Made by a program: the position numbers and the translations under genes. Positions 30,097-55,700 of a DNA stretch of 64,000 nt are shown in pieces. A model generated the notes under the pieces. It was not told the DNA's origin, did not search any database, and saw nothing but the letters and a program-made list of their open reading frames with translations. Origin of the DNA: an uncultured Spirochaetota bacterium (lineage in GTDB: Bacteria; Spirochaetota; UBA4802; UBA5550); contig CAWHAA010000007.1 of assembly GCA_963827275.1 (NCBI GenBank), forward strand, positions 224,001 through 288,000, given 5' to 3'. How positions within the stretch are numbered: the first letter of the stretch is position 1; each line of letters opens with the position of its first letter.

Positions 30097-31736
30097 ATGC
30101 TCAATGTGTCCGATATTTCGCTTTCCTTCGGGAAGCGAGTCCTCTTCAAGGAAGTCAACATCAAGTTTTCCCCTGGAAACTGCTACGGGCTCATCGGCGC
30201 GAACGGGTCCGGGAAATCCACGTTTCTGAAAATACTTTCCGGCGAGATCGATCCGTCAACCGGCGAGGTCTCCCGTAACCCGAAGGAGCGGATCGCGATG
30301 CTGCGGCAGGACCAGTCCGCCTTCGATGAATACCCCGTGCTGGACACCGTGATCATGGGCCACGGGGCGCTGTACGCGGTGCTGAAGGAGCGGGACGAGA
30401 TATATTCGAAGGATGATTTTTCAGAGGAAGACGGCCACCGCGCGGCCGAGCTCGAGGAGATGCTGGACGAGATGAACGGCTACGACGCCGAGCCTGACGC
30501 GGCGGCCCTCCTCGGCGGCCTCGGGATAGACGACGAGCTGCACACTAAGAAGATGAAAGAGCTGGAAGGGGGACAGAAGGTGCGCGTGCTGCTTGCTCAG
30601 GCCCTGTTCGGCAACCCGGACATCCTCCTGCTCGACGAGCCGACCAACAACCTCGACATCGAATCGATCACCTGGCTCGAGAATTTTCTCTACAACTTCA
30701 ACAACACGGTCATTGTCGTTTCCCACGACCGGCATTTCATCAACAAGGTCTGCACGCATATCGCCGACATCGACTACGGGAAGATCATGATCTACGCCGG
30801 CAACTATGACTTCTGGGCGCAGGCCAGCCAGCTGGCGGTCAAGCAGAAGAAAGAGGAAAACAAGAAGAAGGAAGACAAGATACGGGAGCTCCAGTCGTTC
30901 ATCGAGCGCTTCAGCTCCAACGCCTCCAAGGCGCGGCAGGCGACCTCGAGGAAAAAGCTCGTGGAAAAGCTCACCATCGACGAGATCCCCGTGACATCGC
31001 GCCGGTTCCCCTACGTGGCCTTCAAGCCGGACCGGGAATGCGGGAAGATGGTGCTTTCAGTGGAAAACCTGTGCAAGACCGTCGAGGGCGGACCGGTCCT
31101 GGATGATTTCAGCCTCATCGTGAACCGGAGGGACAAGATCGCCTTCGTCGGGCCAGAACAACCTCGTGAAGACCGTCCTGTTCGAGATCCTCATGGGCGA
31201 GATGAAGCCCGATTCCGGGGATTATCAAATGGGGGGAGACCATCACCACCGCCTATTTCCCGAAGGAAAACGCGCGCTACTTCGACAATGACATGACGCT
31301 CGTCGATTGGCTCCGCCAGTATCACGACGGAAAAGGACGAGACCTACGTGCGCGGCTTCCTCGGGAGGATGCTCTTCTCCGGCGAGACGAGTCGCTGAAA
31401 AGGTGAACGTGCTCTCGGGCGGGGAGCGGGTCCGCTGCATGCTCTCCCGGATGATGCTATCGGGGCCAACGCGCTGGTGCTCGACGACCCGACCAACCAC
31501 CTGGACCTGGAGTCGATCACGTCGCTGAACAACGGCCTCATCAATTTTCCCGAGCGTGCTTCTCTTCTCGTCGCACGACCACCAGTTCATCGACACCATC
31601 GCGAACCGGATCGTGGAGATCACGCCCGCCGGCGTCATGGACCGGGCCATGACGCTTCGACGAGTATATCGTCAGCGACGAGATCAGGCGGATCAGGGAC
31701 GAGATGTACCACGGGCACCAGCGCCTGAGCATATAG
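30097..31736 (+). CDS. ABC-F family ATPase (YbiT/YkpA-like); 3' third broken by multiple indels
   Basis: First NBD is intact (GANGSGKST, LLLDEPTNNLD). Second NBD fragments (VRGFLGRMLFSG, LSGGERVRC, LDDPTNHLD, SHDHQF) are scattered over three frames between 31150 and 31736. Confidence 0.85.
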
Positions 31737-31755
31737 CCGGCGCTCCGCCGCGGGC

Positions 31756-32829
31756 TTACCCCTTTGACGGCGGCTTTTCCTCCCAGTCCCAGAAGAAGTC
31801 CTTGTTCGTGAGTTCCTTCTCTTCCTCCCCGGGGCGGTCCGCCCTGCGCACCGAATCGGGCAGATCGGCGGTATGTGAATGGAAGAATTCAAGCTGGTCT
31901 TCAAGGTCCGCGGTCTCGTCCTCCCAGTACTGCACCGTGCCGAAATGGGGAAAGGCGGCGGGAAACGCCGGGTCCTGCCACCGCTGGGCGATCCACGACG
32001 CGTACCGTATGTACCGCAGGGCCCTGAGCGGCTCGATCAGCCGGAGCCAGGCGGCATCGAAATCGCGGAACTGCCGGTAGGCATCAAGGAACACCTCGCG
32101 CTGCCGCAGCCCTTCACGGTCCCGTGCCGGCACGAGCATCCACATGTCCTGGACGGCCGGCCCGGTCAGGAAGTCATCGAAATCGAGAAAGAACCATCCC
32201 TCGCTTCCGTGCAGCAGGTTGCCGAGATGGCAGTCCCCGTGAATACGGTGGAAGGGGACGCCCTTTGCCAGCGTCCCGTAGATATCCACCACCTCGAGGA
32301 CCGCGTTCCGGTACCGGGCCCTGCAGTGCGGCGGAAGGAAATCGTGCTCTTCCAGGAAGGCCAGCGGCTGCAGCCCGTAGGATTCGCCGGTCAGGGCGAT
32401 ACGGTGCGCGGCCGTTTTAGCCGCGCCGTTGTTATGGATCCGCGCGCACAACCTGCCCAGTATCCCGATCTCTTCGTCGCTGAGCTCGTCGGGGACCCTC
32501 CCGCCGGTCCTGGGCCATATCGCGTAGAGTATCCCCTCGACCTCGCGGAGGGTGCCGCCGCCGGGGAAGGGGAGCGGCGCGCATACCGGGATCTCGTCAC
32601 TTCTGAGCTCGTGCAGAAAGGCGTGCTCCTCGAGGATCTGCTCCCTGGTCCACCTGCCGGGCCGGTAGAACTTGCTCACGACATGCGATCCGTCCTCCAG
32701 CATGAGGTCGTACACCCTGTTCTCATAGCTGTTCAGGGCAAGGCAGTGGCCGGTCGGCTCGAAACCTCCCTGTTCAACCGCCCTGATGACGATATCGGGG
32801 GTCAGGTTAAAGAAAAAATTGCTCATCAT
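31756..32829 (-). CDS. srkA: stress response kinase A (SrkA/RdoA/YihE)
   Basis: Motifs 'LNSYENRVY', 'KFYRPGRW...QILEEH', HGDCHLGN, LDFDD and 'WQDPAFPAAFP'. Confidence 0.92.
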   Translation of the reverse strand: MMSNFFFNLTPDIVIRAVEQGGFEPTGHCLALNSYENRVYDLMLEDGSHVVSKFYRPGRWTREQILEEHAFLHELRSDEIPVCAPLPFPGGGTLREVEGILYAIWPRTGGRVPDELSDEEIGILGRLCARIHNNGAAKTAAHRIALTGESYGLQPLAFLEEHDFLPPHCRARYRNAVLEVVDIYGTLAKGVPFHRIHGDCHLGNLLHGSEGWFFLDFDDFLTGPAVQDMWMLVPARDREGLRQREVFLDAYRQFRDFDAAWLRLIEPLRALRYIRYASWIAQRWQDPAFPAAFPHFGTVQYWEDETADLEDQLEFFHSHTADLPDSVRRADRPGEEEKELTNKDFFWDWEEKPPSKG

Positions 32830-36175: not shown

Positions 36176-37108
36176 TTATATTCTCTTGCACATCTTGTTC
36201 TGATACATCAGCTCATCCGCCCGCGCGATCATTTCATCGAGTTCGGCACCCGCGGCCGGGTCCCATTTCACTATACCCCAGCTCATGGAGATGATGTACT
36301 GGTGGTCGGCGTACTCGTTGTAGCTGTTGATGCAGCTGATGATCCGTTCGTCAATCGCCTCGAGGTTCCCCGCGTCAGCGTTGATCATCATCACCAGGAA
36401 TTCATCGCCGCCCCAGCGGGAGATAACATCAGAATTACGAAATACTTTTTTTAAGATGCCTGCCGCGGCGATTATGGCGGCGTCGCCGGCATCATGGCCG
36501 AAAGCGTCATTGATATGCTTCATGTGGTCCAGGTCGAAGAACCCGATGATCATGGCCCGCCCGGTCCGTTTCGCGATATCGACATGCTGGCGGGCGAGAT
36601 GGCGGAATCCCCGTCGGTTATATATCCCCGTGAGGTCGTCCAGCAGGGTTATCTCCTGCATCCGTCTCTCAAGGTCCCTGCTTTTAATGAGCTCCTTCGT
36701 CAGGACCTGGTTTTTTTGGAGCATTCCCATGTCAAAGCGGTGGCGGTGCCTCGTCATCTCGATCTGGATGATGAGCTCCTGGGCGCGGTACGGCTTGAGT
36801 ACAAACCCGTACGGGATCTGGGTTGCGGCCCTGTTTACGAACTGCTCATCGGTGTAGGTGGTGAGGAAAATTATGGGGATGTTGTTCTCATGACGGATCT
36901 TTGCCGCAGCATCAATCCCGTCCATGTCGCCCTTCAGAATAATGTCCATGATGATGATGTCAGGCTTCAGCGTCCGTGCGGCCTGGATCGACTTTTCCGC
37001 GGTATCGACAGTGTCCACCACACTATAGCCGCACTTCTGCAGTGTCAGGCTGATATCATGGGCTATCAATGCCTCATCTTCAACAATAAGAACTTTGTAA
37101 TCCTTCAT
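36176..37108 (-). CDS. response regulator diguanylate cyclase (REC-GGDEF)
   Basis: REC domain (VEDE, IIMDII, KPY), 'DDLTGIYNRR', 'DLDHMK.IND.FGHDAGD', RNSD I-site and RWGGDEF. Confidence 0.95.
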   Translation of the reverse strand: MKDYKVLIVEDEALIAHDISLTLQKCGYSVVDTVDTAEKSIQAARTLKPDIIIMDIILKGDMDGIDAAAKIRHENNIPIIFLTTYTDEQFVNRAATQIPYGFVLKPYRAQELIIQIEMTRHRHRFDMGMLQKNQVLTKELIKSRDLERRMQEITLLDDLTGIYNRRGFRHLARQHVDIAKRTGRAMIIGFFDLDHMKHINDAFGHDAGDAAIIAAAGILKKVFRNSDVISRWGGDEFLVMMINADAGNLEAIDERIISCINSYNEYADHQYIISMSWGIVKWDPAAGAELDEMIARADELMYQNKMCKRI

Positions 37109-37303
37109 GACTTGTACAAATTATTAATCCATACAGACGGTTATTTTGTATGGACTTATTCACTATCTATATTTTGTCAATATATTTATAAAAAAAATGA
37201 TCATTTTTAATTATTATACATAAAACAACCGGCGGGCTAATAGTACAGTGATATTTGCAGAACTATTCACTCTTTCGTATTGATGATGCCTCTGATCAAT
37301 TCT

Positions 37304-39473
37304 TCACGCCTCGATGGACTGGTCCTGGCTTTCAAGCTTCATGCCGGGCAGGGATATAAAAAATGTCGAGCCCTTCATATACTCCGAGGTGAACCAGATT
37401 TTTCCCTTGTGGGTTTCGGTAATCATCCGGTGCACCACGTAGAGCCCGATACCGGAGATGGATTTTTGCTTGTATGATGACTTTGTCGTAAAATAGGGCG
37501 CGAATATCTTCTTCCTGTCCTCCTCGGCGATACCGATGCCGTTGTCCGTGACCTCTATGAGAATTGAGTCCTGGTCCCGGGTTAGCCGCACGGTTATACG
37601 CGGGTGGTATTGTTTTCGTTCCTCCGTGGTCATGTGGTTTTTCATCTTTTCATTGGTCGCTTCGTACGCGTTATCGATGATGTTGTACATCGCTTCCATC
37701 AGCTGGGTCATTATCCCGTAAATGAGATCGTCATCCCCGGCGTCAAGCGATATGGGGATGTCCTCGATCCCGTGCTTGATCCTGACGAGGTCCTTCGCCC
37801 CTTCCAGCAGCTCCCTGAAGGAGATGCCGGAGAAATAATTCTGCTTATCGTCGGAAAACGTGAAATTCAGTATCCCCTGGATAACGCCGTTTGTTTTTTT
37901 TACATTGTCGATTATCGATTCCCCTATCTCATTTAAGGAACCGAACACCGTCCCGACATCGGGGTTCTGCTCGACCAGCGTTGAATTCCTGCGCATAAAA
38001 TCATCCACCTCGAGCCGTATCTGCATCGCGGCGAGCGAAAAATGGTTGAGCCTGTTGCGGATCTGGTGGGCGACCCCCTCCGCCATGCCGCCGACGAGCG
38101 CGAGCTTTTCAGCCTGGAAAAGCCGCTCCTGGGTGCTTTTGCGCTCATCCATGTAGAGGCAGTTTTCTATCGCAAGCGCGATCTGGTGGGAGAGAATATC
38201 AAAGGTGTCGATGTCATCAGTGGAGTAATACGACCCGTCGATCTTGTTGCCCAGGACCAGGAAGCCCAGCAGGCGGTCTTCGATGAGAGAGGGCACCAGG
38301 ATGCTGGTCTTTGTCAGGGGCGCGCCGGCAACGATGCCGGGCTCCATCTCCGGGGAGACCGGTTTTTGCTGCTTTCGCATAAGCTCGACGACCGGGTCGT
38401 CGTAGCTGAATTTTGCCCCCGCGGCAAAGACGGTGTCATCGCTCGCGCTTGCCAGCCGGAAATATCCGTTGACCGGATCGTCCAGGAAGATCGCAGCATA
38501 GTCGATCTTGATAACGGACCTGACCCCGTACATGACCAGCTTTCACGAGGCGCTCGATATTGTGGACGCGGAGGATCGTCTTGGCGGAGTCATGCAGTAT
38601 CTTCTGGTACTCGCGTTGCCGGGAAAAAATCACGTCCTCCGCCTTCACGTGGAGATAGCGGTACAGGATCGGGCCCATTGTTGCAAGGACGAAGAGCGTG
38701 AAGAAGGAGAGGAACCCGAATTTCGTGTGAAAGCCTATGATGAACGGGATACCGAGTACCATGGCGTATACCGCCAGGAAAATCCCGGTCCGCGAGAGCA
38801 CCACCTTGATGTCCAGCAGACGGTAGCGGGCGATGGCGTATCCCATAAGCCCGACATAGGTCCCGACGAGGATATTGGCGTAGGGAGGGAAATCAAAGCC
38901 GTACCACATCGGCCAGTTGGAGGCGCCGCCAAGGAATCCGATAATCCCCGATACGATAGTATACTTCGTCTGTTCCCGTTTGATCCCCGTTGCTTTTTTT
39001 AAATAGCGCACCAGCAAAATGAAGATATAGAGGGCTTCCCACACCCAGAAAGCGAGATACCCGTTGAACAGCATGGTGGTGTCGGGCCACAGTCCCAGCC
39101 CGTGCCGCGGTTCGAGGCCCGTGTAGAGAAATGGGCCAAGGTTCAGGGCGAGGAATATGGCGTTTATTAGATAATAGGCAATAATTTCTTTTTTTTTCTT
39201 TTCGAAGGTGCTTACCAGGCATAACACATAGTGCAGCAGGGTCACGTTTATAAGGATTATGCCGATAAAGAGCGCTTTGAACCAGAAGAGTGCGGTTGCC
39301 TGTTCATGCGAGAGCTGCCAGAAAAAATATCCGAGGCCGTACAGGCCGACGCTCAGGCTGAAATAAAAGAAGTGCCTGTTCTGCTGACCACGGGGATTTT
39401 TTATGAATACAAATGTGCCGAATACTACACTGGTCAGAAAATTGATGAGACCGGTTATTGCAAGAAACGTCAT
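37304..39473 (-). CDS. 7TM (HisKA_7TM-type) - GAF - histidine kinase; split by a +1 frameshift near 38542
   Basis: ORF 38436..39473 is the 7TM sensor. ORF 37304..38533 carries the GAF domain, H-box AHQIRNRL, N-box NIIDNA, DNGIGI, FTTK and GIGL. Removing one A in GTGAAAGCTG restores ...RLVKLVMYGV..., about 722 aa. Confidence 0.85.
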
Positions 39474-40624
39474 GTCGTTTTTTCAATAATTATAAAAAAG
39501 ATTATGTTCGTATCCGTTTCCCGCTCCACGCTCAGGTTGTAACCCCGCATGCCGGTTGATTTCACGAGATCGACGGTTTCCTGCATGTCGCGCAGATGGA
39601 AGGTCCAGTCGCACCACCAGTCCGGGGCGAGGGGGCTGTAGTTTTTTGAGTCCTTATGCGCGAAGACCAGTTTCCCGCCAGGCTTGACGACGCTGAAGAG
39701 GAACGCGATGAGGTCCTTGAGGCGCTGATCGGGGATGTAATCCGCGAGGCCGATCGTATAGACCAGGTCCTGGTCAGTGAGGAGTTTCCTGTACTTATCC
39801 GGCTCCTTGAGATAGTCATATACGCTGTGGCAAAGGGGGGTATATACGACATGCGCCGGGGAATGCGAGAGCGCTTTCAGCGAGAAGTCGATCGCCTCCT
39901 GGTCCTGGTCAACGAGCGTGAATTCGATTTTTTTCGATGCGTCAACGGTGTTTTGCTCAAACAGCTCTTTTATCTCCCGGCATGAACCGCAGGCGATATT
40001 GAGTATCCTGAGCGACGGACCGGGGGCCTCTTTAATGAAGCCGGCGAGCATTTCCCTCATCATCGTTTTCCTGCTCCGGACGGCCCGCGCGTAATCGTCA
40101 TTTAAAAAGCGCTTGTCCGCGCAGTATCCTATGCCCCGCGAGGAGATTTTATTGTCATACACGATCTCAATGATGCCGTAGTCTCCGGCGTATCCCCGGG
40201 GCTTTGAAAAGGCGTGCATCATGATATCTGACTTCATACCCACAGGGATGCCGCATTCACGGAACAGCTGTTTGACTTTTTTTATTAACGCGGGGTCTTC
40301 CAGCGAGTCTTCGAGCTTCTTTCCCTCCTGGAGTATGGCGTCCGTCATGGCTGCAACGGTCCCGCTTGCCGGTTCTTCCTGTAGCCTGCCGTCTTCCATC
40401 GCTGCGTCAAGGGCGAAAATCACCCCCATGTAGTGGGCGGCCTTCTGCCAGAATCCCATTACCTGATCGCGGGCGCTGTCCGTTGAAATTTCATCAAGCA
40501 GTGGAGAAATTTTTTCCAGGGTGCGCTTGCATGCCGACGCGTCAAAATATTTTTCATTTTTTCCCGTGTTCAGGCAATTCTGGAGCTTCTCTTCGGTAAT
40601 GGTCTGATTCCGGGAATTATTCAT
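39470..40624 (-). CDS. class I SAM methyltransferase, PhcB-like (3-hydroxy fatty acid methyl ester synthase family)
   Basis: Motifs 'HAFSKPRGYAGDY', 'AVRSRK', ILNIACGSCREI, DQDQEA, 'YTIGLADY' and 'WWCDW'. ATGA overlap with the kinase. The start was taken as ATG 40624 (AGGAAAGG RBS). Confidence 0.7.
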   Translation of the reverse strand: MNNSRNQTITEEKLQNCLNTGKNEKYFDASACKRTLEKISPLLDEISTDSARDQVMGFWQKAAHYMGVIFALDAAMEDGRLQEEPASGTVAAMTDAILQEGKKLEDSLEDPALIKKVKQLFRECGIPVGMKSDIMMHAFSKPRGYAGDYGIIEIVYDNKISSRGIGYCADKRFLNDDYARAVRSRKTMMREMLAGFIKEAPGPSLRILNIACGSCREIKELFEQNTVDASKKIEFTLVDQDQEAIDFSLKALSHSPAHVVYTPLCHSVYDYLKEPDKYRKLLTDQDLVYTIGLADYIPDQRLKDLIAFLFSVVKPGGKLVFAHKDSKNYSPLAPDWWCDWTFHLRDMQETVDLVKSTGMRGYNLSVERETDTNIIFFIIIEKTT

Positions 40625-41141
40625 TATGTAACCTTTCCTGTCACTCGTTAAACTTATGATTATAGTAGCAACATTATCACTGCGAGCATCTACTCGCCAT
40701 CGCTTCTGCTGGCCCATCCGCACGGCAGGTTGATAATTGTATATGGTTTATTGTTCGAGAAAAACCGATCAGGCTTGAGGGTAAAGCATTCCAGCGCTAA
40801 ATGCAAGAAAAAATTATTTTTATAGACACAATTGTCTGAAATTTTGATATTTGCATAATATGTTATTATTTTATGTCGCATGATGCTTCACACTTGTTGA
40901 TGGTACGTGGCGTTGAGAGAAACCGGCATAAAAATCCTGCTGCCGCTATCGATACCGAACGGCGGATACCGGTGCGTGATACAAGCAGGGGCATGCTTGC
41001 GTGCCTTACATCAATTATGGTATATGAGCACGGCGCGGCATGATTTGTCAATTGATATTTAACAATCGTTAAAAGTCGTTTTTGGCCTGCTGGCCAGGGA
41101 GCGTTTTTTAGCTTCATGATCACAACGGGTCCCAAAATTTC

Positions 41142-42530: not shown

Positions 42531-45500
42531 TTATTCGATTTTTCGGATGCAGTGGTTACCAAGATCAATTAAATAAAGGTAGTTGCCATTTATAGTGATG
42601 CCAACTGGGGCCCAAAATCTCGCAGCATTACCTATTCCGTCATCTGAAGCATAAGTACCTGCGAGTCCGGCAACTGTGCTAACCTCTCCCGTGGCTATAA
42701 CTATCTTTCTTAAAGTATTATTGTTATGGTCAGCCACGTAGAGATTAATCCCATCACTCACGATTCCAGTGGGATGGTTAAATAATGCTGCACTCCCGAT
42801 TCCATCTGTTGATCCTGCAGTACCCGCCATCCCGGCAATGGTGGTAACCTCATTAGTGACGATCACTACTTTGCGGATGGTGTGATTTAATGTGTCAGCC
42901 ACAAACAGATTAGTACCGTCAGTGGTTATACCCAGTGAGCCTCGAAATCGTGCGGTCGTGCCAATGCCATCGGCAGAACCAGATACACTTGATCCAGCGA
43001 TAGTTGTCACCTGGCCTGTTGCAATCACTACCTTGCGAATTGTATTGTTGTCAGCCACGTAAAGATTATCGCCGTCAATCGTTATGCCCCTAAATGATCT
43101 GAATCTTGCCGCACTCCCGATACCATCATTATATCCATAAGTACCTGCCAAACCGGCAAGGGTCGTGACTTCGGCAGTAGCGATTACTATTTTGCGTAAG
43201 GTATAGTTCAATGAATCCGCCACATAAAGATTCTTCCCGTCAGTAATGATTCCTTGAGGAGCAGTAAATTGAGCCTCACTGCCAATCCCGTCGCTTGATC
43301 CAGAAGATCCTGCAGTACCTGCAAGCGTCGTCACCTCGCCTGTAGCTATCATTATCTTGCGTATTGCATGGTTGTTTGTGTCAGCCACATAGAGATTTTT
43401 TCCATCGGTAGTAATGTCATACGGGCTATTAAACCTCGCAGAAATCCCGATTCCGTCCGCTGTTCCACTAGTTTTTGACATGCCTGAATATGTGGTAACT
43501 TCCCCGGTAGTTATTAAAATTTTCCTTATTGTATTATTGGATGTGTCAGCCACGTAGAGATTGGTGCCGTCAGTAGTTATTTTCGATGGTTGATTAAACA
43601 GTGCAGCGTTTACGGTTCCGTCCGTTGATCCGATAGTGCCCGAAAACCCGGCGATAGTGGTCACAAAACCTGAGATAATATTTATCGTACGAATCGTGTG
43701 GTTTTGAGTGTCAGGAATATATAGATTGATTCCATCAGTTGTTATCCCATTGGGTTGATAGAAACGTGCCGTAGATCCTATTCCGTCCGTCGATCCACTA
43801 CTACCAGCCAGGCCGGCAAGAGTGCTGACTTCACTGGTGGCTATCACTATCTTTCGTATTGTATGATTTTCTGTGTCAGCCACGTAGAGATTGGTTCCAT
43901 CGGTAGTGATGCCTCTTGGTCCATATAAACGTGCTGTTGTTCCTGTTCCGTCCGTCGATCCACTAATACGAGCTTGACCGGCAAGTGTTGTGACCTCACT
44001 GGTGGCTATCACTATCTTACGGATTGTAAAATTACCTGTATCAGCGACGTATAGATTAGTACCATCAGTTGTGATCCCTCTAGGAACATTGAATCTAGCC
44101 TCACTCCCTATTCCGTCTGCATATCCTGAAGTACCACCACCGGCGAAGGTAGTGACCTCACCAGTGGCGATAACGAGCTTGCGGATTTTATTGTTTGCCA
44201 GGTCAGCTATATAAAGATTTATTCCGTCAGTTGTTATATCCCAGGGGTAGAAAAAGCGAGCAGCAGTTCCTATTCCGTCCGTCGATCCATTAATGCCAAC
44301 TTGGCCGGCAATAGTTGTGACTTCACCTGTGTTAATAACTATCTTTCGTATTGTATGATTGTTTGAGTCAGCCACATAAATGTTGTCGCCATCATTGGTC
44401 ATGCCATTAGGATAATTAAACTTCGCCATGACTCCAATACCATCCGAATAGCCTTTACCGCCGATACTTCCTGCAAAATGGCTTACAATACTTTGTATAT
44501 CTAATGTTACCTTAACAATGATTGTATAATTTTTAGTACTTCCATCCTCCGCGATTACCGTATATACCAGAAGGTTGGTGAAATCATTGGCCGTGACCCC
44601 GCTCTGCTGTAACACTCCACCGACAGTAATGCTTGTGCCGTTTGTTGAGAATATAGCGATAAGGGATCCTGTATCAATCCCGGTTGGCAATGTAAGTGAT
44701 ATAGTATTGCTATTAATTGTACCAATTACTCCATTGATCGAAAATGATGTAATATCTTTCAAGGGACTCAGCATCCTCACCCGCACCGTGTAATCCTGCG
44801 TCGATCCGTCCTCGGCCGTGACCCGGTAGACCACCGGGTCGGTGAAGTCGTTCGCGGACACGCCGCTCTCCTGGACGTCGCCATCAACGGTGACGCCCGT
44901 GCCGCTTGTGGTGAATGCTGCCACCAGTCCTGTCACGTCCGTGCCCCAGGGGAGCGTCACGGTGATAAAGGGATAGGCGATCACGCCGGCGGTCCCGTTT
45001 ATAGAGAATGCCGTCATCTCCTTGGCCCGGCTCTGCACGTACACGTTCTGCGTGTCGGTCGAATAGGCGAGGGAGGCGGTCACCACGCCGGGGCCGTGAC
45101 ACCCGGTGGTGTCAAGGACGCCGTCCGGGTCCATGAAGCCTATGGAGGCGTCCGCCGACCATACCGGTAGCACCGGGATGGTGTTCCCGTACCCGTCGCG
45201 GCCGATCACGTCAAAAGCGTACGAAGTGCCTTCGCTGACGGCCAGGTCGCCCGGTATGGAAATGCCGTTAGTGTTGAGGACCTCGATCGATTCGAGCTCT
45301 CCCGTGTAAATGTTGATGGATGCTATCGCGCTCTCGCCGTCAAACCCGGCAACGAGCTGGTCTGGCGTACCTGCCGGTGTCCGGGTGATGGCCCTGAGCA
45401 GAATGCCCTGCGCGAAGCGGTTCGTGAGCGCGGCGCCTCCGTATGCCATGGTGAAGGTCTCGGGAACGAGGCTGAAAGCGGTGCCGTTGTTGTCCACGCC

Positions 45501-46496
45501 GCGCACCAGCAGGAAGCGCTCGAACCCGGCGGTTATGTCCAGCGTTGCCGGGTTGATGTTCGCGCTGCCTGCCTCGTAGGTGCGGGTCACGTCGTATCTC
45601 CTGGTCCCCGATGCCTGGACCGCGCCCAGGTTGTCGGTCGCCTCGATTCGGTACTCGATGTCGTTGCCGGCGCCGATGTCGGCGGCGGTGAGGAATGAGG
45701 CCGGTATCAGGTAACCGTAGGTGTGGAGCGTTGCCTGCGGGTTGGCCTCTTTCGTCATGCGTGCTTCCTGCCACACGCCCGCGCCGGCGCCGTGGAGCTT
45801 CCGGTACCGGAGCGTGACCCCGGCAACGGCGCCGTCATAGTCCCTGACCGTGGCGCGCACGTAGATCGGCGCGCCCGCCCTTATTGTGGTTGGCCAGGGC
45901 GCCTGGAGCCCCACGTACGGCTCGTTGTTGGTCGGGAGCAGGGCCTGCGCCATTGGCAGGTACACGGTGAAGTGCTCGATCAGGGCGGTGACCCTGTTGT
46001 GCGCTGTGTCAACGATGCTGTTGACCGGCACGTAGCATTTCAGGTCTTCATCGTAATAGCAAATCTGTATTGTCTCAGGGCTGAGGCCCAGCCGGGCCAG
46101 CTCCGCGCTGTCGTAGTACATCTCGAGCACCGCCGGCTCGCCCAGGTCAAAGCCGGTGCCTTTCGGCAGGAACCGGTACGCCTGGCCGAAGGAGGTGAGC
46201 CCGTCAGCGTCGCCCGCGGGGATGTCGCCTGTTCTTTCTATGGATATGGTCAGGTCGTCCGCAAGGGCCTCTGCAGGGACCGTGAGGGTCAGCTCATCGT
46301 TCAGCTGAACAACGCCGCCGGCCTCGGCCGTGATGAGGGTGCTGCCGCCCTTGTCGCCTCCCGCGCCGAGGAATAGCGCGCCCAGCATGGAATTGTTCGA
46401 TTGCTGCCCGCAGCCCGGCAGGAGGAGCAGGGAGAGTGTACAGAGCGTCATAACGATTGCCGCGGCCGTATTCCTGGCAGAATTAGCTGTTTTCAT
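42531..46496 (-). CDS. surface lipoprotein: ZU5-like/Ig domains, two DUF5018-like repeats, 12 NHL repeats
   Basis: Lipobox LLPGC and a GGAGG RBS before ATG 46496. Two copies of 'NDFT..V.Y.V.AEDGST..YT'. Twelve copies of 'G.NLYVAD..NHTIRKIVIATGEVTT.AG'. Confidence 0.9.
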   Translation of the reverse strand: MKTANSARNTAAAIVMTLCTLSLLLLPGCGQQSNNSMLGALFLGAGGDKGGSTLITAEAGGVVQLNDELTLTVPAEALADDLTISIERTGDIPAGDADGLTSFGQAYRFLPKGTGFDLGEPAVLEMYYDSAELARLGLSPETIQICYYDEDLKCYVPVNSIVDTAHNRVTALIEHFTVYLPMAQALLPTNNEPYVGLQAPWPTTIRAGAPIYVRATVRDYDGAVAGVTLRYRKLHGAGAGVWQEARMTKEANPQATLHTYGYLIPASFLTAADIGAGNDIEYRIEATDNLGAVQASGTRRYDVTRTYEAGSANINPATLDITAGFERFLLVRGVDNNGTAFSLVPETFTMAYGGAALTNRFAQGILLRAITRTPAGTPDQLVAGFDGESAIASINIYTGELESIEVLNTNGISIPGDLAVSEGTSYAFDVIGRDGYGNTIPVLPVWSADASIGFMDPDGVLDTTGCHGPGVVTASLAYSTDTQNVYVQSRAKEMTAFSINGTAGVIAYPFITVTLPWGTDVTGLVAAFTTSGTGVTVDGDVQESGVSANDFTDPVVYRVTAEDGSTQDYTVRVRMLSPLKDITSFSINGVIGTINSNTISLTLPTGIDTGSLIAIFSTNGTSITVGGVLQQSGVTANDFTNLLVYTVIAEDGSTKNYTIIVKVTLDIQSIVSHFAGSIGGKGYSDGIGVMAKFNYPNGMTNDGDNIYVADSNNHTIRKIVINTGEVTTIAGQVGINGSTDGIGTAARFFYPWDITTDGINLYIADLANNKIRKLVIATGEVTTFAGGGTSGYADGIGSEARFNVPRGITTDGTNLYVADTGNFTIRKIVIATSEVTTLAGQARISGSTDGTGTTARLYGPRGITTDGTNLYVADTENHTIRKIVIATSEVSTLAGLAGSSGSTDGIGSTARFYQPNGITTDGINLYIPDTQNHTIRTINIISGFVTTIAGFSGTIGSTDGTVNAALFNQPSKITTDGTNLYVADTSNNTIRKILITTGEVTTYSGMSKTSGTADGIGISARFNSPYDITTDGKNLYVADTNNHAIRKIMIATGEVTTLAGTAGSSGSSDGIGSEAQFTAPQGIITDGKNLYVADSLNYTLRKIVIATAEVTTLAGLAGTYGYNDGIGSAARFRSFRGITIDGDNLYVADNNTIRKVVIATGQVTTIAGSSVSGSADGIGTTARFRGSLGITTDGTNLFVADTLNHTIRKVVIVTNEVTTIAGMAGTAGSTDGIGSAALFNHPTGIVSDGINLYVADHNNNTLRKIVIATGEVSTVAGLAGTYASDDGIGNAARFWAPVGITINGNYLYLIDLGNHCIRKIE

Positions 46497-46709
46497 AAAA
46501 AACCTCCCCATGGATAATGAGCAAGGAGCTCACCGGTAATAGAAACAGGGGCTGGAACATGCCCTTCAGGATAATGATTGGATGCAATGGAAAAATGTGT
46601 TATGTGGATTAATAATTACAATGTGGTTTAAAATCAAGGATTATTTCAAAATCCAGCCAGGCTCTTTTTTGATCCGATCAGAAATTGGCTGCAGGTATGG
46701 CGAGGGGAT

Positions 46710-46740
46710 AAAAAAGGGCGCGGTCCGATGGACCGCGCCC
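46710..46740 (-). terminator. Rho-independent terminator of the giant adhesin gene
   Basis: GGGCGCGGTCC-atc-GGACCGCGCCC stem followed by a T-tract on the minus strand, 13 bp after the stop. Confidence 0.85.
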
Positions 46741-46753
46741 CGGGGGTTCTATG

Positions 46754-49700
46754 TTATCTGGCCGGGAAGCAGTGGGCGCCCGGACCGGCGGTGTAACCGC
46801 CTGGCAGGCTGTCTGATCCATCATAAATGAAGCTCATGGTAAACGGATCGAATATCGTCGTCTCTGATTGGTAAGCACCATGTACTATCATGTACATTCC
46901 TTTATAGGTGCCGCCTGTTATTGGAAACGCGAATGCCCCTTCACCTATATGATATCCATTGGTAAATGACGGTCCATCAGCGATTGTTCCAATCCCTGAA
47001 TCCGGAGAGTAGATGGATGTGGTATATTCATCGCCGCCGTGCACAATGAGCACTTGACCGGCGTACGTACCACTTTTAATCGGTATGCTGAATGACCCTG
47101 TTTTCGGGGTGTTTGCGGATGGGATATTCGGCCCGGAAGTAATTGTCGGTGTCGAAGTCGGCTCAAAGAGCCAGGTGCGAGCGGATCCGCCTTCGATGAT
47201 CAACATCCATCCGGCATAAGCTCCTGAGGTAAGTTTGACACAATGACCACCGTCACCGATACTCGCAGTGCCATCTATCATATATGTTGGCGAGAGCGTT
47301 CCCGCGCTCTGGTTAAATACCTGGTAAGTATAGTTGTTATTGCCGTGAACGATTACCAGATTGTTGTCAAGGTTCTTGAAAATGAAGGACCCAGATCCTA
47401 TGCCCGGACTGAATGTATACCCGAAACTATTGAACGAACCCGGCATATCCGGATCAAACCGCCTCATCCCTGGGCTGCCGCCGCCGTTTATGACAATGAA
47501 GTCGTTGGGATATGCGCCGCCTTCCATCATGAAAGAGTGCGCGCCATATGAAATGACAGCGCCCGTTCCCGCTGAGTAGTTCGTTATCGAAGGGCCGCTC
47601 GGATCGTACAGGGTGGCGCCCATCCCGCCGCCGTAATTGCCGTGTATAACCATGTATTGGTTGGCATAGGTCCCACTGGGTATCCGGAAGCTGTGGGCGC
47701 CAGATGATACACCGTTTGACATTGAAAGAAAGTCATCACTGAAGGTATTGTCAATCGGATTGTATACGGATGTTGACCCGTTACCGCCGCCATGAACAAC
47801 CCTGAGCGGCATCACGCCAGCCCCGATCAGGTGGATCACATACGGGTTCTCATCCGGGTCGTCGTTCGGAATCTCGATGACCGCAGAGCGCAGACCTTCG
47901 CCGCCGGGCGTGAACGTGACGTCAAAGGTGCAGGTGCCGTTGCCGTACGCGACGGGCCCTCCATAGCTGGTCGTATCGAGAGTATAATCACCATCGTGCA
48001 CGCCGGATAATATCGGGAAATTCGGATTTAGATCGGCGCCGGTCCCGAAATTTTCCACCGTGAAGGTCACGGTGACGCCTGAGCCCCCGATCAGTTCGTC
48101 GCCGAAATCGAACCAGGTGTCCGACGGATAGTATTGCGAATCGGCCTCGATGTTGATGTCCGGGACCGGCGACGAGACAGAGCCGCCGTTGAGGTTGAGC
48201 GTATAGGGCTCAGTATTGGAATTGATGGTGAGCACGGTCGAGTATGGCCCGGTGTCGCCCGGGGCAGCGAAGGTGACGGTGAATGTTTCCATGCCCGAAG
48301 GCGGAATCAGTGTAGTGGCCGGCCCGGAGACCACGAAGACAGTATTGTCCTCCGCATCCACCAACAGATCATAGATGTCAAGGTCGATGTAGCCGTTGTT
48401 GGTTATGGTGAAGGTGACTGGCCCGTTGATTTCGCCTGCACCGGCAAAGCCGAAATCGTACAGGCTGCCTGTCGGGTACTCCAGGCCGTCGATGGTGATA
48501 TCAAGGGTCGGGAGCGGACTCCCGTTGCCATGGCCGGTGAGGTTAATAATGTAATTATTTTCATACCCCGTGTCCGGGTCGTTTGAAGTGATGGTGAGAA
48601 CGTCATTCTCGGGTGACGAGGATAGCGGTCGGTACTCGACCGTGAAGGTCGTGGCGCCGCCGCCCGGTATGCTCATGGCACCGGGGCCGGTCACTGTGTA
48701 ACGGGTGCCATCTGCCAGGGATATGCCCGAGATCTCGAGGCCGCCGATGCCGCTGTTCACTATCGTGAACGTTGCCCGCGATACATCGGTATTCATCACC
48801 GTGTCGAATGTATAGGTGTCGCCCGACAGGTATTCCACCGCGCCGGACCTGACGTCGATATCCGGGACCGGTGCGGCGACGCCCTCACCGGTGAGCCCGA
48901 TGGTGTAGCTGCTCTCATCCAGGTCGGTGGAGGAGATATCCAGAAATACCTCGGGAGAGGTGCCAAAGGTGCCCGTCGTCTGAGGGGCGAAGGTGACGGT
49001 GATGGTGGTGCTGGTCCCCGCGTCAAGCTCAGCGAATTCCGGGCCGGGAACCGTGACCGAGAAGTTGGTCGTGTCCGAGACCCCCACCGAGACGAGGCTG
49101 AGCGTTCCCGTTCCCGCGTTCTCTACCGTGAAGGTGACCGACTTGGACTGGCCGACCTGCACCCTGCCGAAGTCATAGGTGCTGCCCGTAGCCGGGTAAT
49201 TGACTATACCCCTCCTGACGTTGATGTCCGGGCTCACATATTCTATGCTGTACTGCGGCGCGGCAATATTGGGATTGCCGGCCGTATCAGTGACGGCGCC
49301 GGCGTTGATATCCACGGTGACCGTGCCGTAGGCTGCTGGATAGATTTCCGCTGTGTAGTTGGCGCCGGAGCCCATGAGGTTGGACACGGAACCGTTAGTG
49401 ACGGTTATGCTTCCCGCATTGAAGCCGGTCACGTCTTCGCTGAAGGTGATAGTTATCGGTATGGGCGAGGTGCCGGTGGAGGCGCCCGGGCCGGTGATGG
49501 CCACGGTCGGCGCGACGGTGTCAACATAGGTTATGCTGTACTGCGGCGCGGCGGTATTAAGATTGGAGGCGGCATCCTGTGCGACGCCGGCGTTGATATC
49601 CACGGTAACGGTGCCGTAGGCGGCCGGAAAGATATCCGCCGTGTAGTTGGCGCCGAAGCCCATGAGGTTGGACACGGAACCGTTCGTGACGGTTATGCTT

Positions 49701-52700
49701 GCTGCATTGAAGCCGGTCACGTCTTCGCTGAAGGTGATAGTTATCGGTATGGGCGAGGTGCCGGTGGAGGCGCCCGGGCCGGTGATGGCCACGGTTGGCG
49801 CGACGGTGTCAACATAGGTTATGCTGTACTGCGGCGCGGCGGTATTAAGATTGGAGGCGGCATCCTGTGCGACGCCGGCGTTGATATCCACGGTAACGGT
49901 GCCGTAGGCGGCCGGAAAGATATCCGCCGTGTAGTTGGCGCCGAAGCCCATGAGGTTGGACACGGAACCGTTCGTGACGGTTATGCTTCCCGCATTGAAG
50001 CCGGTCACGGCTTCGCTGAAGGTGATAGTTATCGGTATGGGCGAGGTGCCGGTAGAGGCGCCTGGTCCGGTGATAGCCACGGTCGGCGCGACGGTGTCCA
50101 CATAGGTTATGGTATATTGCGGCGCGGCAATATTGGGATTGCCGGCCGTGTCAGTGACGGCGCCGGCGTTGATATCCACGGTGACCATGCCGTAGGCTGA
50201 CGGATAGATCTCCGCCGTGTAGTTGGCGCCGAAGCCCATGAGGTTGGACACGGAACCGTTCATGACGGTTATGCTTCCCGCATTGAAGCCGGTCACATCT
50301 TCGCTGAAGGTGATAGTTATCGGTATGGGCGAGGTGCCGGTAGAGGCGCCTGGTCCGGTGATAGCGACCGTCGGGGCGACGGTGTCCACATAGGTTATGC
50401 TGTACTGCGGCGCGGCAATATTGGGATTGCCGGCCGTGTCAGTGACGGCGCCGGCGTTGATATCCACGGTGACCATGCCGTAGGCTGACGGATAGATCTC
50501 CGCCGTGTAGTTGGCGCCGGAGCCCATGAGATTGGACACTGTGCCGTTGGAAGTGATATCGGCCGCATTGAAGCCGGTCACGTCTTCGCTGAAAGTGATA
50601 GTTATCGGTATGGGCGAGGTGCCGGTAGAGGCGCCCGGGCCGGTGATGGCAACGGTCGGCGCTATCCCGTCAACGACAAAGTTTTTGTTGTCCGCCAGGT
50701 TGGTACCTGACGGCGGGGCCATGACTGCGTTGTTGCTGTAGGGGTCCTGCAGGGTGGCCGTGCCGATCAGCTCCATGCTCGCAACATTGAGATCGTTTGA
50801 TACATCGCCGGCTCCAACGGTATACGTGGCGTTCAGAGTGTTCACGTACGAGCCGGTTGGATTTATATCGACCGAAGCACCGCTGTCAAGATGGACCCGC
50901 AGCACGTCGTTCACGAAATATGCCGATTCACTCAAGGTCAGGGTGAAGGTTATTGTTTGGCCTGCCCTGAAGTATCCATCCGAGAGGCCCGAGGTTATAG
51001 TGGTTATGCGCGGGCCAGCGGTGTCCGTATGTACAGTTATTCCGGTGCTCGGCACCATCTCGTTACCGTTCATATCCTGGAATCCGCTGATATTGTAATA
51101 ACTGTTTTCTTCAATATCCTCGTTATTCAGGGTAAAGCTCCCTGTCCAGGTGTTGTTTGAAGGCTCTGCGTTCATGCTGCCTGATATATTGTAGGTTGTT
51201 CCATTTAACGTCAATGTTGGCGTGGGCGCAGGTATGGCGTTCATGGGTTCGCTGAAGGTGATGGTTACTGTGACGACCTGTCCTCTGTTGAAACCGGTCA
51301 GGAACGTTGGCGTTGCGCTGAGAGCTGTCGGCTGTTCGGTATCCACATAGGTTATGCTGTACTGCGGCGCGGCAATATTGAGATTGCCGGCTGTGTCAGT
51401 GACGGCGCCGGCGTTGATATCCACGGTGACCGTGCCATAGGCTGCCGGATAGATTTCCGCCGTGTAGTTGGCACCGAAGCCCATGAGGTTGGACACGGAA
51501 CCGTTAGTGACGGTTATGCTTCCCGCATTGAAGCCGGTCACGTCTTCGCTGAAGGTGATAGTTATCGGTATGGGCGAGGTGCCGGTAGAGGCGCCTGGTC
51601 CGGTGATAGCGACCGTCGGGGCGACGGTGTCCACATAGTTTATGCTGTACTGCGGCGCGGCAATATTGGGATTGCCGGCCGTGTCAGTGACGGCGCCGGC
51701 GTTGATATCCACGGTGACCATGCCGTAGGCGGCCGGATAGATCTCCGCCGTGTAGTTGGCGCCGAAGCCCATGAGGTTGGACACGGAACCGTTTGTGACG
51801 GTTATGCTTCCCGCATTGAAGCCGGTCACGTCTTCGCTGAAGGTGATAGTTATCGGTATGGGCGAGGTGCCGGTAGAGGCGCCTGGTCCGGTGATAGCGA
51901 CCGTCGGGGCGACGGTGTCCACATAGGTTATGCTGTACTGCGGCGCGGCAATATTGGGATTGCCGGCCGTGTCAGTGACGGCGCCGGCGTTGATATCCAC
52001 GGTGACCATGCCGTAGGCGGCCGGATAGATCTCCGCCGTGTAGTTGGCGCCGAAGCCCATGAGATTGGACACGGTGCCGTTGTGACGGTTATGCTTGCCG
52101 CATTGAAGCCGGTCACGTCTTCGCTGAAGGTGATAGTTATCGGTATGGGCGAGGTGCCGGTGGAGGCGCCCGGGCCGGTGATGGCCACGGTCGGCGCGAC
52201 GGTATCAACATAGGTTATGCTGTACTGCGGCGCGGCGGTATTAAGATTGGAGGCGGCATCCTGTGCGACGCCGGCGTTGATGTCCACGGTAACGGTGCCG
52301 TAGGCGGCCGGATAGATCTCCGCCGTGTAGTTGGCGCCGAAGCCCATGAGGTTGGACACGGTGCCGTTCGTGACGGTTATGCTTCCCGCATTGAAGCCGG
52401 TCACGTCTTCGCTGAAGGTGATAGTTATCGGTATGGGCGAGGTGCCGGTAGAGGCGCCCGGTCCGGTGATGGCGACGGTCGGCGCGACGGTGTCAACATA
52501 GGTTATGCTGTACTGCGGCGCGGCGGTATTAAGATTGGAGGCCGCATCCTGTGCGACGCCGGCGTTGATGTCCACGGTAACGGTGCCGTAAGCGGCCGGA
52601 TAGATTTCCGCCGTGTAGTTGGCGCCGAAGCCCATGAGGTTGGACACGGTACCGTTAGTGACGGTTATGCTTCCCGCATTGAAGCCGGTCACGTCTTCGC

Positions 52701-55700
52701 TGAAGGTGATAGTTATCGGTATGGGCGAGGTGCCGGTAGAGGCGCCCGGGCCGGTGATGGCCACGGTCGGCGCGACGGTGTCAACATAGGTTATGCTGTA
52801 CTGCGGCGCGGCGGTATTGGGATTGGCGGCCGCATCAGTGACGGCGCCGGCGTTGATGTCCACGGTAACGGTGCCATAGGCTGCCGGATAGATTTCCGCC
52901 GTGTAGTTGGCGCCGAAGCCCATGAGGTTGGACACGGAACCGTTCGTGACGGTTATGCTTCCCGCATTGAAGCCGGTCACGTCTTCGCTGAAGGTGATAG
53001 TTATCGGTATGGGCGAGGTGCCGGTGGAGGCGCCCGGGCCGGTGATGGCCACGGTCGGTGCGACGGTGTCAACATAGGTTATGCTGTACTGCGGCGCGGC
53101 GGTATTAAGATTGGAGGCCGCATCCTGTGCGACGCCGGCGTTGATGTCCACGGTAACGGTGCCGTAGGCGGCCGGAAAGATTTCCGCCGTGTAGTTGGCG
53201 CCGAAGCCCATGAGGTTGGACACGCTGCCGTTTGTGACGGTTATGCTTCCCGCATTGAAGCCGGTCACGTCTTCGCTGAAGGTGATAGTTATCGGTATGG
53301 GCGAGGTGCCGGTAGAGGCGCCCGGGCCGGTGATGGCCACGGTCGGCGCGACGGTGTCCACATAGGTTATGCTGTACTGCGGCGCGGCGGTATTAAGATT
53401 GGAGGCCGCATCCTGTGCGACGCCGGCGTTGATATCCACGGTAACGGTGCCGTAAGCGGCCGGATAGATATCCGCCGTGTAGTTGGCGCCGAAGCCCATG
53501 AGGTTGGACACGGAACCGTTTGTGACGGTTATGCTTGGCCGCATTGAAGCCGGTCACGTCTTCGCTGAAGGTGATCGTCACCGGGATAGGCGCAGTGCCG
53601 GTGGGATCGGGCGCCGCTGAGGTTATCGCTACCGTCGGCGGCACGATGTCGATGTAGGTTATGGAGAAGGTCGGTGCGGCAGTGTTCCAGTTCAAGGCGG
53701 CATCCTGCGCCGCATTGGCCGCAACGTCGACCGACACGGTCCCATACCCGGTCGGCGTGATGTTGGTGGTATAGACCGCGCCGGAACCAGCCAGGGTCCC
53801 CGCGGTCCCGTTCGTGACGGTTATATCGGTATTAATAAACCCGGTCACCGGCTCGCTGAAGGTGATCGTCACCGGGATAGGCGCAGTGCCGGTGGGATCG
53901 GGCGCCGCTGAGGTTATCGCTACCGTCGGCGGCACGATGTCGATGTAGGTTATGGAGAAGGTCGGTGCGGCAGTGTTCCAGTTCAAGGCGGCATCCTGCG
54001 CCGCATTGGCCGCAACGTCGACCGACACGGTCCCATACCCGGTCGGCGTGATGTTGGTGGTATAGACCGCGCCGGAACCAGCCAGGGTCCCCGCGGTCCC
54101 GTTCGTGACGGTTATATCGGTATTAATAAACCCGGTCACCGGCTCGCTGAAGGTGATCGTCACCGGGATAGGCGCAGTGCCGGTGGGATCGGGCGCCGCT
54201 GAGGTTATCGCTACCGTCGGCGGCACGATGTCGATGTAGGTTATGGAGAAGGTCGGTGCGGCAGTGTTCCAGTTCAAGGCGGCATCCTGCGCCGCATTGG
54301 CCGCAACGTCGACCGACACGGTCCCATACCCGGTCGGCGTGATGTTGGTGGTATAGACCGCGCCGGAACCAGCCAGGGTCCCCGCGGTCCCGTTCGTGAC
54401 GGTTATATCGGTATTAATAAACCCGGTCACCGGCTCGCTGAAGGTGATCGTCACCGGGATAGGCGCAGTGCCGGTGGGATCGGGCGCCGCTGAGGTTATC
54501 GCTACCGTCGGCGGCACGATGTCGATGTAGGTTATGGAGAAGGTCGGTGCGGCAGTGTTCCAGTTCAAGGCGGCATCCTGCGCCGCATTGGCCGCAACGT
54601 CGACCGACACGGTCCCATACCCGGTCGGCGTGATGTTGGTGGTATAGACCGCGCCGGAACCAGCCAGGGTCCCCGCGGTCCCGTTCGTGACGGTTATATC
54701 GGTATTAATAAACCCGGTCACCGGCTCGCTGAAGGTGATCGTCACCGGGATAGGCGCAGTGCCGGTGGGATCGGGCGCCGCTGAGGTTATCGCTACCGTC
54801 GGCGGCACGATGTCGATGTAGGTTATGGAGAAGGTCGGTGCGGCAGTGTTCCAGTTCAAGGCGGCATCCTGCGCCGCATTGGCCGCAACGTCGACCGACA
54901 CGGTCCCATACCCGGTCGGCGTGATGTTGGTGGTATAGACCGCGCCGGAACCAGCCAGGGTCCCCGCGGAACCGTTCGTGACGGTTATGCTTCCCGCATT
55001 GAAGCCGGTCACGTCTTCGCTGAAGGTGATAGTTATCGGTATGGGCGAGGTGCCGGTAGAGGCGCCCGGGCCGGTGATGGCCACGGTTGGCGCGACGGTG
55101 TCCACATAGGTTATGCTGTACTGCGGCGCGGCGGTATTTGGGTTGCCGGCCGTGTCAGTGACGGCGCCGGCGTTGATATCCACGGTGACCATGCCGTAGG
55201 CTGCCGGATAGATCTCCGCCGTGTAGTTGGCGCCGGAGCCCATGAGGTTGGACACGGAACCGTTTGTGACGGTTATGCTTCCCGCATTGAAGCCGGTCAC
55301 GTCTTCGCTGAAGGTGATAGTTATCGGTATGGGCGAGGTGCCGGTGGAGGCGCCCGGGCCGGTGATGGCAACGGTCGGTGCAACAGTATCAACATAGGTT
55401 ATGCTGTACTGCGGCGCGGCGGTATTAAGATTGGAGGCGGCATCCTGTGCGACGCCGGCGTTGATGTCCACGGTAACTGTGCCATAGGCTGCCGGATAGA
55501 TATCCGCCGTGTAGTTGGCGCCGAAGCCCATGAGGTTGGACACGGAACCGTTCGTGACGGTTATGCTTGCTGCATTGAAGCCGGTCACGTCTTCGCTGAA
55601 GGTGATAGTTATCGGTATGGGCGAGGCGCCGGTGGTGGCGCCCGGTCCGGTGATAGCCACGGTTGGTGCGATGGTGTCAACATAGGTTATGCTGTATTGC

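Follow-up and report, generated by a model that had tools for sequence, protein, structure and literature searches.

A methyltransferase of the PhcB/FmtB family coupled to a seven-helix histidine kinase in an uncultured spirochaete: a candidate methyl-ester signal synthase and receptor

Organization of the locus

We analyzed a 64,000-nucleotide stretch of DNA from an uncultured Spirochaetota bacterium (GenBank assembly GCA_963827275.1, contig CAWHAA010000007.1, positions 224,001 to 288,000), called the window hereafter, in which three consecutive minus-strand genes encode a methyltransferase, a membrane histidine kinase, and a diguanylate cyclase with receiver and GGDEF domains (REC-GGDEF). 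A reading made from the sequence alone had proposed that these genes form a circuit resembling the phc quorum-sensing system of Ralstonia, with cyclic di-GMP (c-di-GMP) as its output. The methyltransferase is a 384-residue open reading frame (ORF) at positions 39470 to 40624 that matches Pfam Methyltransf_20. We read a Shine-Dalgarno-like sequence, AGGAAAGG (40632 to 40639, minus strand), 7 nt ahead of its ATG at 40624, with a GTG at 40723 as an alternative start. The motifs on which the earlier proposal had relied (KPRGYAGDY, AVRSR, NIACG, GLADY, and DWWCDW) are all present in this ORF. Its end overlaps the start of the kinase gene in an ATGA stop/start at 39470 to 39473, as had been reported, an arrangement indicative of translational coupling between the two genes.

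The kinase gene (37304 to 39473) encodes a protein of about 723 residues composed of HisKA_7TM, two extra membrane helices, GAF, DHp, and HATPase_c, as delineated by Pfam (HisKA_7TM, GAF, and HATPase_c) and by the orthologue of a sister-species genome (G009). The domains previously assigned to it were thus recovered, while its reading frame proved to be broken: in this assembly the gene is divided into two ORFs, of 345 (38436 to 39473) and 409 (37304 to 38533) residues, which had been overlooked. The break is a one-base frameshift at 38540 to 38544. Since one base at 38540 or 38544 is missing from the contigs of all four sequencing runs compared here (each from a different study), the kinase of the sister species is a single uninterrupted 723-residue protein, and rpoC lies in four pieces in the window's assembly, the break is an error of that assembly.

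The REC-GGDEF gene (36176 to 37108, 310 residues; Pfam Response_reg and GGDEF, also recognized by NCBIfam) follows in the same orientation after 195 bp and is not coupled to that of the kinase. Its protein has the phospho-acceptor aspartate (in MDI), the RxxD motif (RNSD at 224), and GGDEF at 233 that had been ascribed to it, and both the active site and the inhibitory site are intact. A conserved element, TATTGACAAA followed by an AACCG-type palindrome, precedes it at 37126 to 37182 on the minus strand and was defined by aligning the upstream regions of orthologues. The sequencing runs carrying this stretch came from bioreactors, sediments, fresh water, manure, wetlands, soil, and waste water, and no RNA run was among those listed. 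The closest titled relatives of the locus are Spirochaetota/Leptospirales metagenome-assembled genomes (MAGs).

The enzyme is a methyltransferase of the PhcB/FmtB family

In Ralstonia and Cupriavidus, PhcB makes the methyl ester of 3-hydroxymyristic or 3-hydroxypalmitic acid (3-OH MAME or 3-OH PAME), which is sensed by PhcS (PMC6989110 and PMC11960443; PMC5481312, PMC9102662, PMC13220807, and PMC7694676 were also drawn on for the phc system). A primer-based scan of metagenome contigs gave no match for Ralstonia PhcB, and plasmid searches returned no Ralstonia among the listed organisms; orthologues from Cupriavidus, Paraburkholderia, and Janthinobacterium therefore stood in for it. The starting point for this set was a Paraburkholderia plasmid carrying an operon of the order methyltransferase-kinase-receiver-receiver, and one member, P0318, is named PhcB by NCBI. 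The Burkholderiales orthologues share an invariant R22, corresponding to the R22C mutation reported in a consulted section on GMI1000 PhcB (PMC6989110).

BLAST aligned the window methyltransferase with the PhcB orthologues at E values of 1e-20 to 2e-23, and hhalign did so with a probability of 99.7% (E 1.6e-26) over 231 columns. When the window's own genome (G000) was searched with a PhcB profile, this enzyme was the sole match (E 2.7e-22). Twenty-seven positions are at least 90% conserved in both families, among them K141, P142, G144, Y145, G147, D148, C212, G213, D239, D295, Y296, W340, and R345, and many homologues carry the JGI label [quoted passage not shown] Identity over the core region was only 24 to 28% to five PhcB orthologues (27% over 230 residues for a Paraburkholderia phcBSRQ-like enzyme), and in trees the methyltransferase fell outside the PhcB clade, in a spirochaete group nested among enzymes bearing an N-terminal PilZ domain. 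The methyltransferase is thus a member of the PhcB/FmtB family and not a PhcB orthologue, so that of the similarity originally proposed from motifs, kinship at the family level stands and orthology does not. PilZ was present on 28 of 41 non-spirochaete enzymes and absent from the window enzyme; local profiles, which were shallow, gave no support for PilZ in the N terminus of PhcB itself.

The AlphaFold2 model of the enzyme (pLDDT 93.4) combines a Rossmann core with a helical lid. Foldseek placed 3OCJ first (E 1.3e-10), as did VIA-align (Z 20.2, root mean square deviation 3.2, 249 residues aligned; runner-up Z 18.2), and the enzyme is thus predicted to adopt a class I S-adenosylmethionine (SAM)-dependent fold whose helical substrate lid is like that of 3OCJ. 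No solved structure was matched when searched by sequence with the enzyme, and NCBIfam had no model for it. 3OCJ is an orthologue of Bordetella FmtB (BP2936) crystallized with probable palmitate, and overproduction of FmtB raised cellular methyl esters, although activity in vitro was undetected (PMC5426589). FmtB is only 17% identical to the window enzyme and was missed by sequence search. Since both characterized relatives, PhcB and FmtB, point to methylation of fatty-acid carboxylates, the window enzyme is likely, by analogy, a fatty-acid carboxyl O-methyltransferase acting as a signal synthase. Acyl-chain substrates in the family are also suggested by ketoacyl-synthase genes, which adjoin 7 of 32 loci whose sensors are of other subtypes than that of the window.

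Alternatively, the enzyme might methylate a protein, for example, the kinase itself, the coupling of the two genes then reflecting a 1:1 complex. CheR methylates chemoreceptors, and a PilZ-gated methyltransferase would resemble the regulation of CheR by MapZ; translational coupling would suit a complex of this kind. However, sequence and fold both place the enzyme with small-molecule enzymes, and the sensor and output domains of its partners have been swapped freely across the family, which is hard to fit with a protein substrate. We regard protein methylation as highly improbable.

The sensor of the kinase is unrelated to that of PhcS

The DHp histidine of the kinase lies within the sequence VAHQIRN, and H156 and the N, G1, F, and G2 boxes are conserved. 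HisKA_7TM (PF16927) was matched with 46.5 bits against a cutoff of 28.6 (E 5.3e-12). Compared with the PhcS sensor, for which two sequences were available, the seven-helix sensor gave an hhalign probability of 0.12% (E 0.48), while two further groups of sensors partnered with enzymes of the family matched the PhcS sensor at 94.9 and 98.8%; alignment of the window kinase with PhcS was limited to the kinase cores. The two sensors are therefore unrelated, and the PhcS-like receptor assumed in the earlier proposal has to be abandoned. The modeled sensor (pLDDT 91) forms a seven-helix bundle whose nearest Foldseek matches were G-protein-coupled receptors (GPCRs; E 5e-4 to 3e-3), with fold scores of Z 16.9 for ADGRL3, 16.4, and 16.2 for a GABA-B receptor. 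This GPCR-like fold in itself shows no function.

When the enzyme tree was rooted on the receptor-less homologues of Rhizobium, Deinococcus, and Pantoea, an assumed root, enzymes linked to HisKA_7TM kinases (7TM-linked) nested within lineages linked to PhcS-type sensors, a few PhcS-type cases falling inside the 7TM group. This nesting suggests that a seven-helix receptor replaced a PhcS-type one.

The window sensor is of a subtype marked by an NWPxWY motif, found in 25 of the 26 loci of this subtype. Between Spirochaetota, Omnitrophota, and Clostridia, such sensors retain 40 to 63% identity, the value for the sister species being 87%, whereas the kinase cores at these loci outside the spirochaetes are 22 to 29% identical. 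A ketoacyl synthase was found near none of the 26 loci, compared with the 7 of 32 others mentioned above, many of the contigs being short. On the basis of this absence, the signal of the window locus likely derives from ordinary fatty-acid pools.

The window's genome encodes a second, PhcS-type kinase, which we ruled out as the receptor given its own coupled biosynthetic genes. It belongs to a second candidate signal cassette (G000:C8:121612-130740, equivalent to L206:3613-12741) encoding, in order, a PilZ-methyltransferase of 1181 residues, an AMP-binding enzyme, a B12 radical SAM enzyme, and the kinase, a hybrid with a PhcS-type sensor and REC and HD domains.

The enzyme-kinase pair is conserved across phyla

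We classified 94 loci, namely, that of the window, 20 belonging to relatives, and 73 of 79 homologue loci (6 duplicates being removed), the 79 coming from the best 80 of 543 confirmed homologues. A HisKA_7TM kinase was encoded by the next gene in 53 loci and nearby in 6; a PhcS-type sensor was encoded by the next gene in 17 and nearby in 5, and the contig ended beside the enzyme in 5. These sensor classes rest on local profiles seeded from the same loci, and Pfam confirmed HisKA_7TM in 24 of the 25 such neighbors scanned. The gap between enzyme and kinase was 35 bp or less in 50 of the 53 adjacent pairs, and the 7TM-linked loci span ten phylum-level groups according to record titles.

In the reverse direction, with five candidates scored per genome, a close orthologue of the kinase was found in 18 of 401 Spirochaetota genomes, and a close orthologue of the enzyme lay directly upstream in the same 18; a further 17 weaker kinase matches among the 401 genomes had no enzyme match adjoining. 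The window's own genome encodes eight HisKA_7TM proteins with varied outputs, and the enzyme adjoins only the window kinase. The synteny of methyltransferase and kinase, noted originally at this locus, is thus conserved both ways in Spirochaetota and across the ten groups. A correlation between enzyme and sensor distances (partial r 0.51) was set aside as proof of coevolution, since it is confounded by kinship. In the literature covered, which took in few subscription journals, we found no description of this gene pair.

These data bear on an explanation without any diffusible signal, in which an FmtB-like housekeeping enzyme methylates free fatty acids or another lipid and the kinase, instead of a secreted product, senses either the enzyme's substrate or membrane state. 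In its favor, the nearest fold among solved structures is that of FmtB, which raises methyl esters and for which the consulted sections of PMC5426589 show no signaling role; in addition, receptor-less homologues exist, and the same domain terminates a polyketide synthase module. A housekeeping function would nevertheless leave unexplained the reciprocal adjacency in 18 of 18 genomes, the near-zero gaps in nearly all adjacent pairs, and the fact that the family is paired with receptors of two unrelated classes and with kinase or phosphatase outputs. We consider this explanation distinctly unlikely.

The REC-GGDEF protein is probably not a dedicated partner

The sequence-only reading had made c-di-GMP the output of the pair, through phosphotransfer to the REC-GGDEF protein. 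Among 19 pair-carrying Spirochaetota genomes, the REC-GGDEF gene was adjacent to the pair in only two, the window's own and that of the sister species, and these are sisters in the recA tree (support 99). It was unlinked in eight, lying 211 kb (G001) and 218 kb (G016) away on the same contig in two cases, and no orthologue was found with the window protein as query in the other nine; one further genome (G014) carries it without the pair. Five relatives have the gene beside htpX, a LIC10025-like gene, and srkA, with no kinase, and the window shows the same neighborhood. REC-GGDEF is thus probably a resident of the htpX/LIC10025-like/srkA neighborhood rather than a dedicated partner of the kinase. 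Because that same neighborhood is kinase free in the five relatives, a single move-in of the pair is the simplest account, and it probably took place once, in the ancestor of the two sister species.

Upstream conservation is consistent with this view. TTGACAAA aligned in 8 of 9 regions upstream of orthologous REC-GGDEF genes, 6 of which have other upstream genes, and upstream of the orthologues of the window and of loci L139 to L144 and L022 lies a TATTGACAAAA box, after which comes an AACCG(T)TCGGTT-type palindrome. A sigma-70 scan called no promoter at the 37126-37182 element on the minus strand. Judging from its conservation, this element is likely the gene's own promoter/operator, and its box and palindrome could be the operator for a putative regulator.

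A tree of receivers, which included the REC-GGDEF orthologue of the sister species (79% identical to that of the window), placed REC-GGDEF in a clade (support 100/99) with nine receivers of the window's genome and with none of the 24 other receivers found beside 7TM-GAF kinases. The protein shares the phospho-aspartate receiver, GGDEF, and RxxD inhibitory site of PleD/WspR-type cyclases and differs from them in that its receiver belongs to an orphan clade. The grouping of all 25 adjacent receivers in a single clade was rejected by an approximately unbiased test (p 0.00016), a result that is unspecific, since these receivers are nonmonophyletic even without that of the window.

The clade comprises at least 10 receivers, mostly PAS fused in the window's genome and with no adjacent kinase gene, and is abundant in other spirochaete MAGs. 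A local profile counted about 56 receivers in the window's genome overall. The nine G000 members are C5:617023, C7:92164, C6:171379, C8:11950, C5:186949, C4:42896, C8:503156, C5:671328, and C4:104716.

A c-di-GMP output would still be obtained if an orphan kinase and an orphan REC-GGDEF were joined functionally within the genus, the adjacency in two species having fixed the link; the synthase and receptor would then be the same, with the kinase phosphorylating the adjacent REC-GGDEF and the signal setting c-di-GMP levels. The two genes are co-oriented in both species, no terminator-like site was called between them, no other receiver adjoins the kinase in spirochaetes, and REC-GGDEF is kinase free in 10 of 10 unlinked contexts. 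Nine of 16 genus relatives have both the pair and REC-GGDEF and five have neither, but this co-occurrence tracks the recA tree, several nodes of which are weakly supported, and we dropped it as evidence. The family is tied to c-di-GMP elsewhere, through the PilZ domains described above and through an HD-GYP-motif gene downstream in 6 of the 27 non-spirochaete loci with room for one, and locus L082 has two GGDEF genes upstream. However, none of these 27 loci has a co-oriented GGDEF gene downstream. Given in addition the rarity of the adjacency, the company of the receiver in the tree, and the gene's own upstream element, specific phosphotransfer to REC-GGDEF appears fairly unlikely. The three-gene c-di-GMP circuit is the weakest and most local part of the earlier proposal.

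Proposed function of the pair

With modest confidence, we favor the view that the pair is a methyl-ester signal synthase and its receptor, phc-like in design with the receptor replaced, and that REC-GGDEF is a bystander. The methyltransferase would esterify the carboxyl group of a fatty-acid-type molecule in a SAM-dependent reaction, as PhcB and FmtB suggest, and the ester, uncharged and presumably diffusible, would pass through the membrane or partition into it. Binding of the ester by the seven-helix sensor would alter autophosphorylation of the kinase, and the phosphoryl group would probably pass to a regulator encoded elsewhere in the genome, since two features of its Omnitrophota relatives, an N-terminal PilZ and single-domain receivers next to the kinase, have been lost from the spirochaete pair. 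What was originally proposed as a synthase and receptor is thus retained for its conserved pairing and its fatty-acid-methylating family, without the phc-type receptor.

Several observations weigh against a signaling pair. FmtB is monocistronic, and neither a receptor partner nor a signaling role is described in the consulted sections of PMC5426589; the Rhizobium, Deinococcus, and Pantoea homologues likewise have no receptor beside the enzyme, and 8 of the 94 loci have neither receptor type nearby. The lid region did not align with the PhcB lid in profile comparison, and this, together with the low identity, means that the substrate may differ from that of PhcB. HisKA_7TM is listed as a sensor domain with no ligand given in the part of PMC5847659 seen, and at 16 of the 18 spirochaete loci no receiver gene adjoins that of the kinase. 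Finally, the 79 homologue loci were picked by similarity and not at random, and 10 of the 18 pair-carrying genomes belong to one genus.

More tentatively, the window pair may represent a widespread, undescribed quorum-sensing family in which methyl-ester signals made by PhcB-family enzymes are read by GPCR-like HisKA_7TM kinases, in place of the PhcS-type receptor, in Spirochaetota, Omnitrophota, Clostridia, Nitrospirota, Planctomycetota, and other anaerobic and candidate phyla. The literature found on methyl-ester quorum sensing, seen in part, describes the Ralstonia group only; if the proposal is correct, such signaling would be far more widespread and would have a second, unrelated, GPCR-like class of receptor. 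HisKA_7TM would gain its first ligand, to which the product of the adjoining enzyme would be a direct route, and because NWPxWY sensors are common to three phyla, unrelated bacteria of digesters and sediments might share one chemical signal. This significance is carried by the conserved pair and not by the local three-gene circuit.

Comparison with phc and related gene sets

The window pair and phcBSRQ share a homologous methyltransferase core with common motifs and the same order, the enzyme gene being followed directly by that of a membrane histidine kinase. They differ in that the window enzyme has 384 residues against about 465 in PhcB, lacking the latter's N-terminal region, and in that the sensor combines HisKA_7TM with GAF; furthermore, no PhcR/PhcQ-like receivers follow, the next gene being REC-GGDEF. 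The phc system proper has as its signal a secreted, density-dependent 3-hydroxy fatty-acid methyl ester and exerts its output by way of PhcA, a LysR regulator. Without the PhcS sensor, a full-length PhcB, and the PhcR/Q receivers, the pair is not a member of phcBSRQ, although by analogy it likely works in a phc-like way. Among HisKA_7TM kinases, with which it shares the Pfam match and the predicted GPCR-like bundle, the window subgroup is set apart by its coupling to a PhcB-family enzyme.

A second spirochaete subfamily, with enzymes of about 465 residues, aligns with PhcB over 433 columns. Its loci (L033 to L041, L196, L197, and L199 to L201; genomes G003, G001, G005, G006, G039, G022, G037, G023, G131, G333, G243, G195, and G358) have a fixed order: an ORF of about 170 residues, one of about 124 residues with no Pfam family, the methyltransferase, and a PhcS-type sensor fused to a SpoIIE phosphatase. 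Of 80 genomes, 20 gave profile matches to this subfamily (f15), and some of these have two copies. Within Spirochaetota, it resembles phc more closely than the window pair does, its receptor being a phosphatase.

In four Nitrospirota loci (L108, L109, L114, and L120), a methyltransferase with or without PilZ is accompanied by FabG-like, ketoacyl-synthase, and amine-oxidase-family genes and by a hybrid kinase of the PhcS type, a set that reads as a dedicated acyl-signal pathway. A plasmid of Enterobacter ludwigii (L124:7622-10759) encodes a ketosynthase-acyl carrier protein-methyltransferase polyketide module whose last domain is of the same methyltransferase family, perhaps providing a methyl-ester-forming release or tailoring step.

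Adhesin genes and other features of the window

Control of the adjacent adhesin genes, also part of the earlier proposal, was not borne out. Apart from proximity in the two sister genomes, nothing connects these genes (42531 to 59758) with the pair; htpX and a DUF2177 gene on the opposite strand lie between them and the methyltransferase, and the loci of 10 further relatives that carry the pair contained no adhesin homologue. An Rfam scan of the window gave no family at gathering score and hence no c-di-GMP riboswitch near the adhesin genes.

The adhesin region contains, at 46754 to 59758 on the minus strand, three overlapping ORFs with Big_12 repeats, of 2121, 538, and 1772 residues, which read as one giant surface protein of more than 4000 residues, probably split by assembly frameshifts. 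They are followed at 42531 to 46511 by a gene for an NHL-repeat, lipoprotein-like protein of 1326 residues. An ABC-F ATPase gene on the plus strand (30097 to 32080) lies in two frames, probably as the result of a further assembly frameshift.

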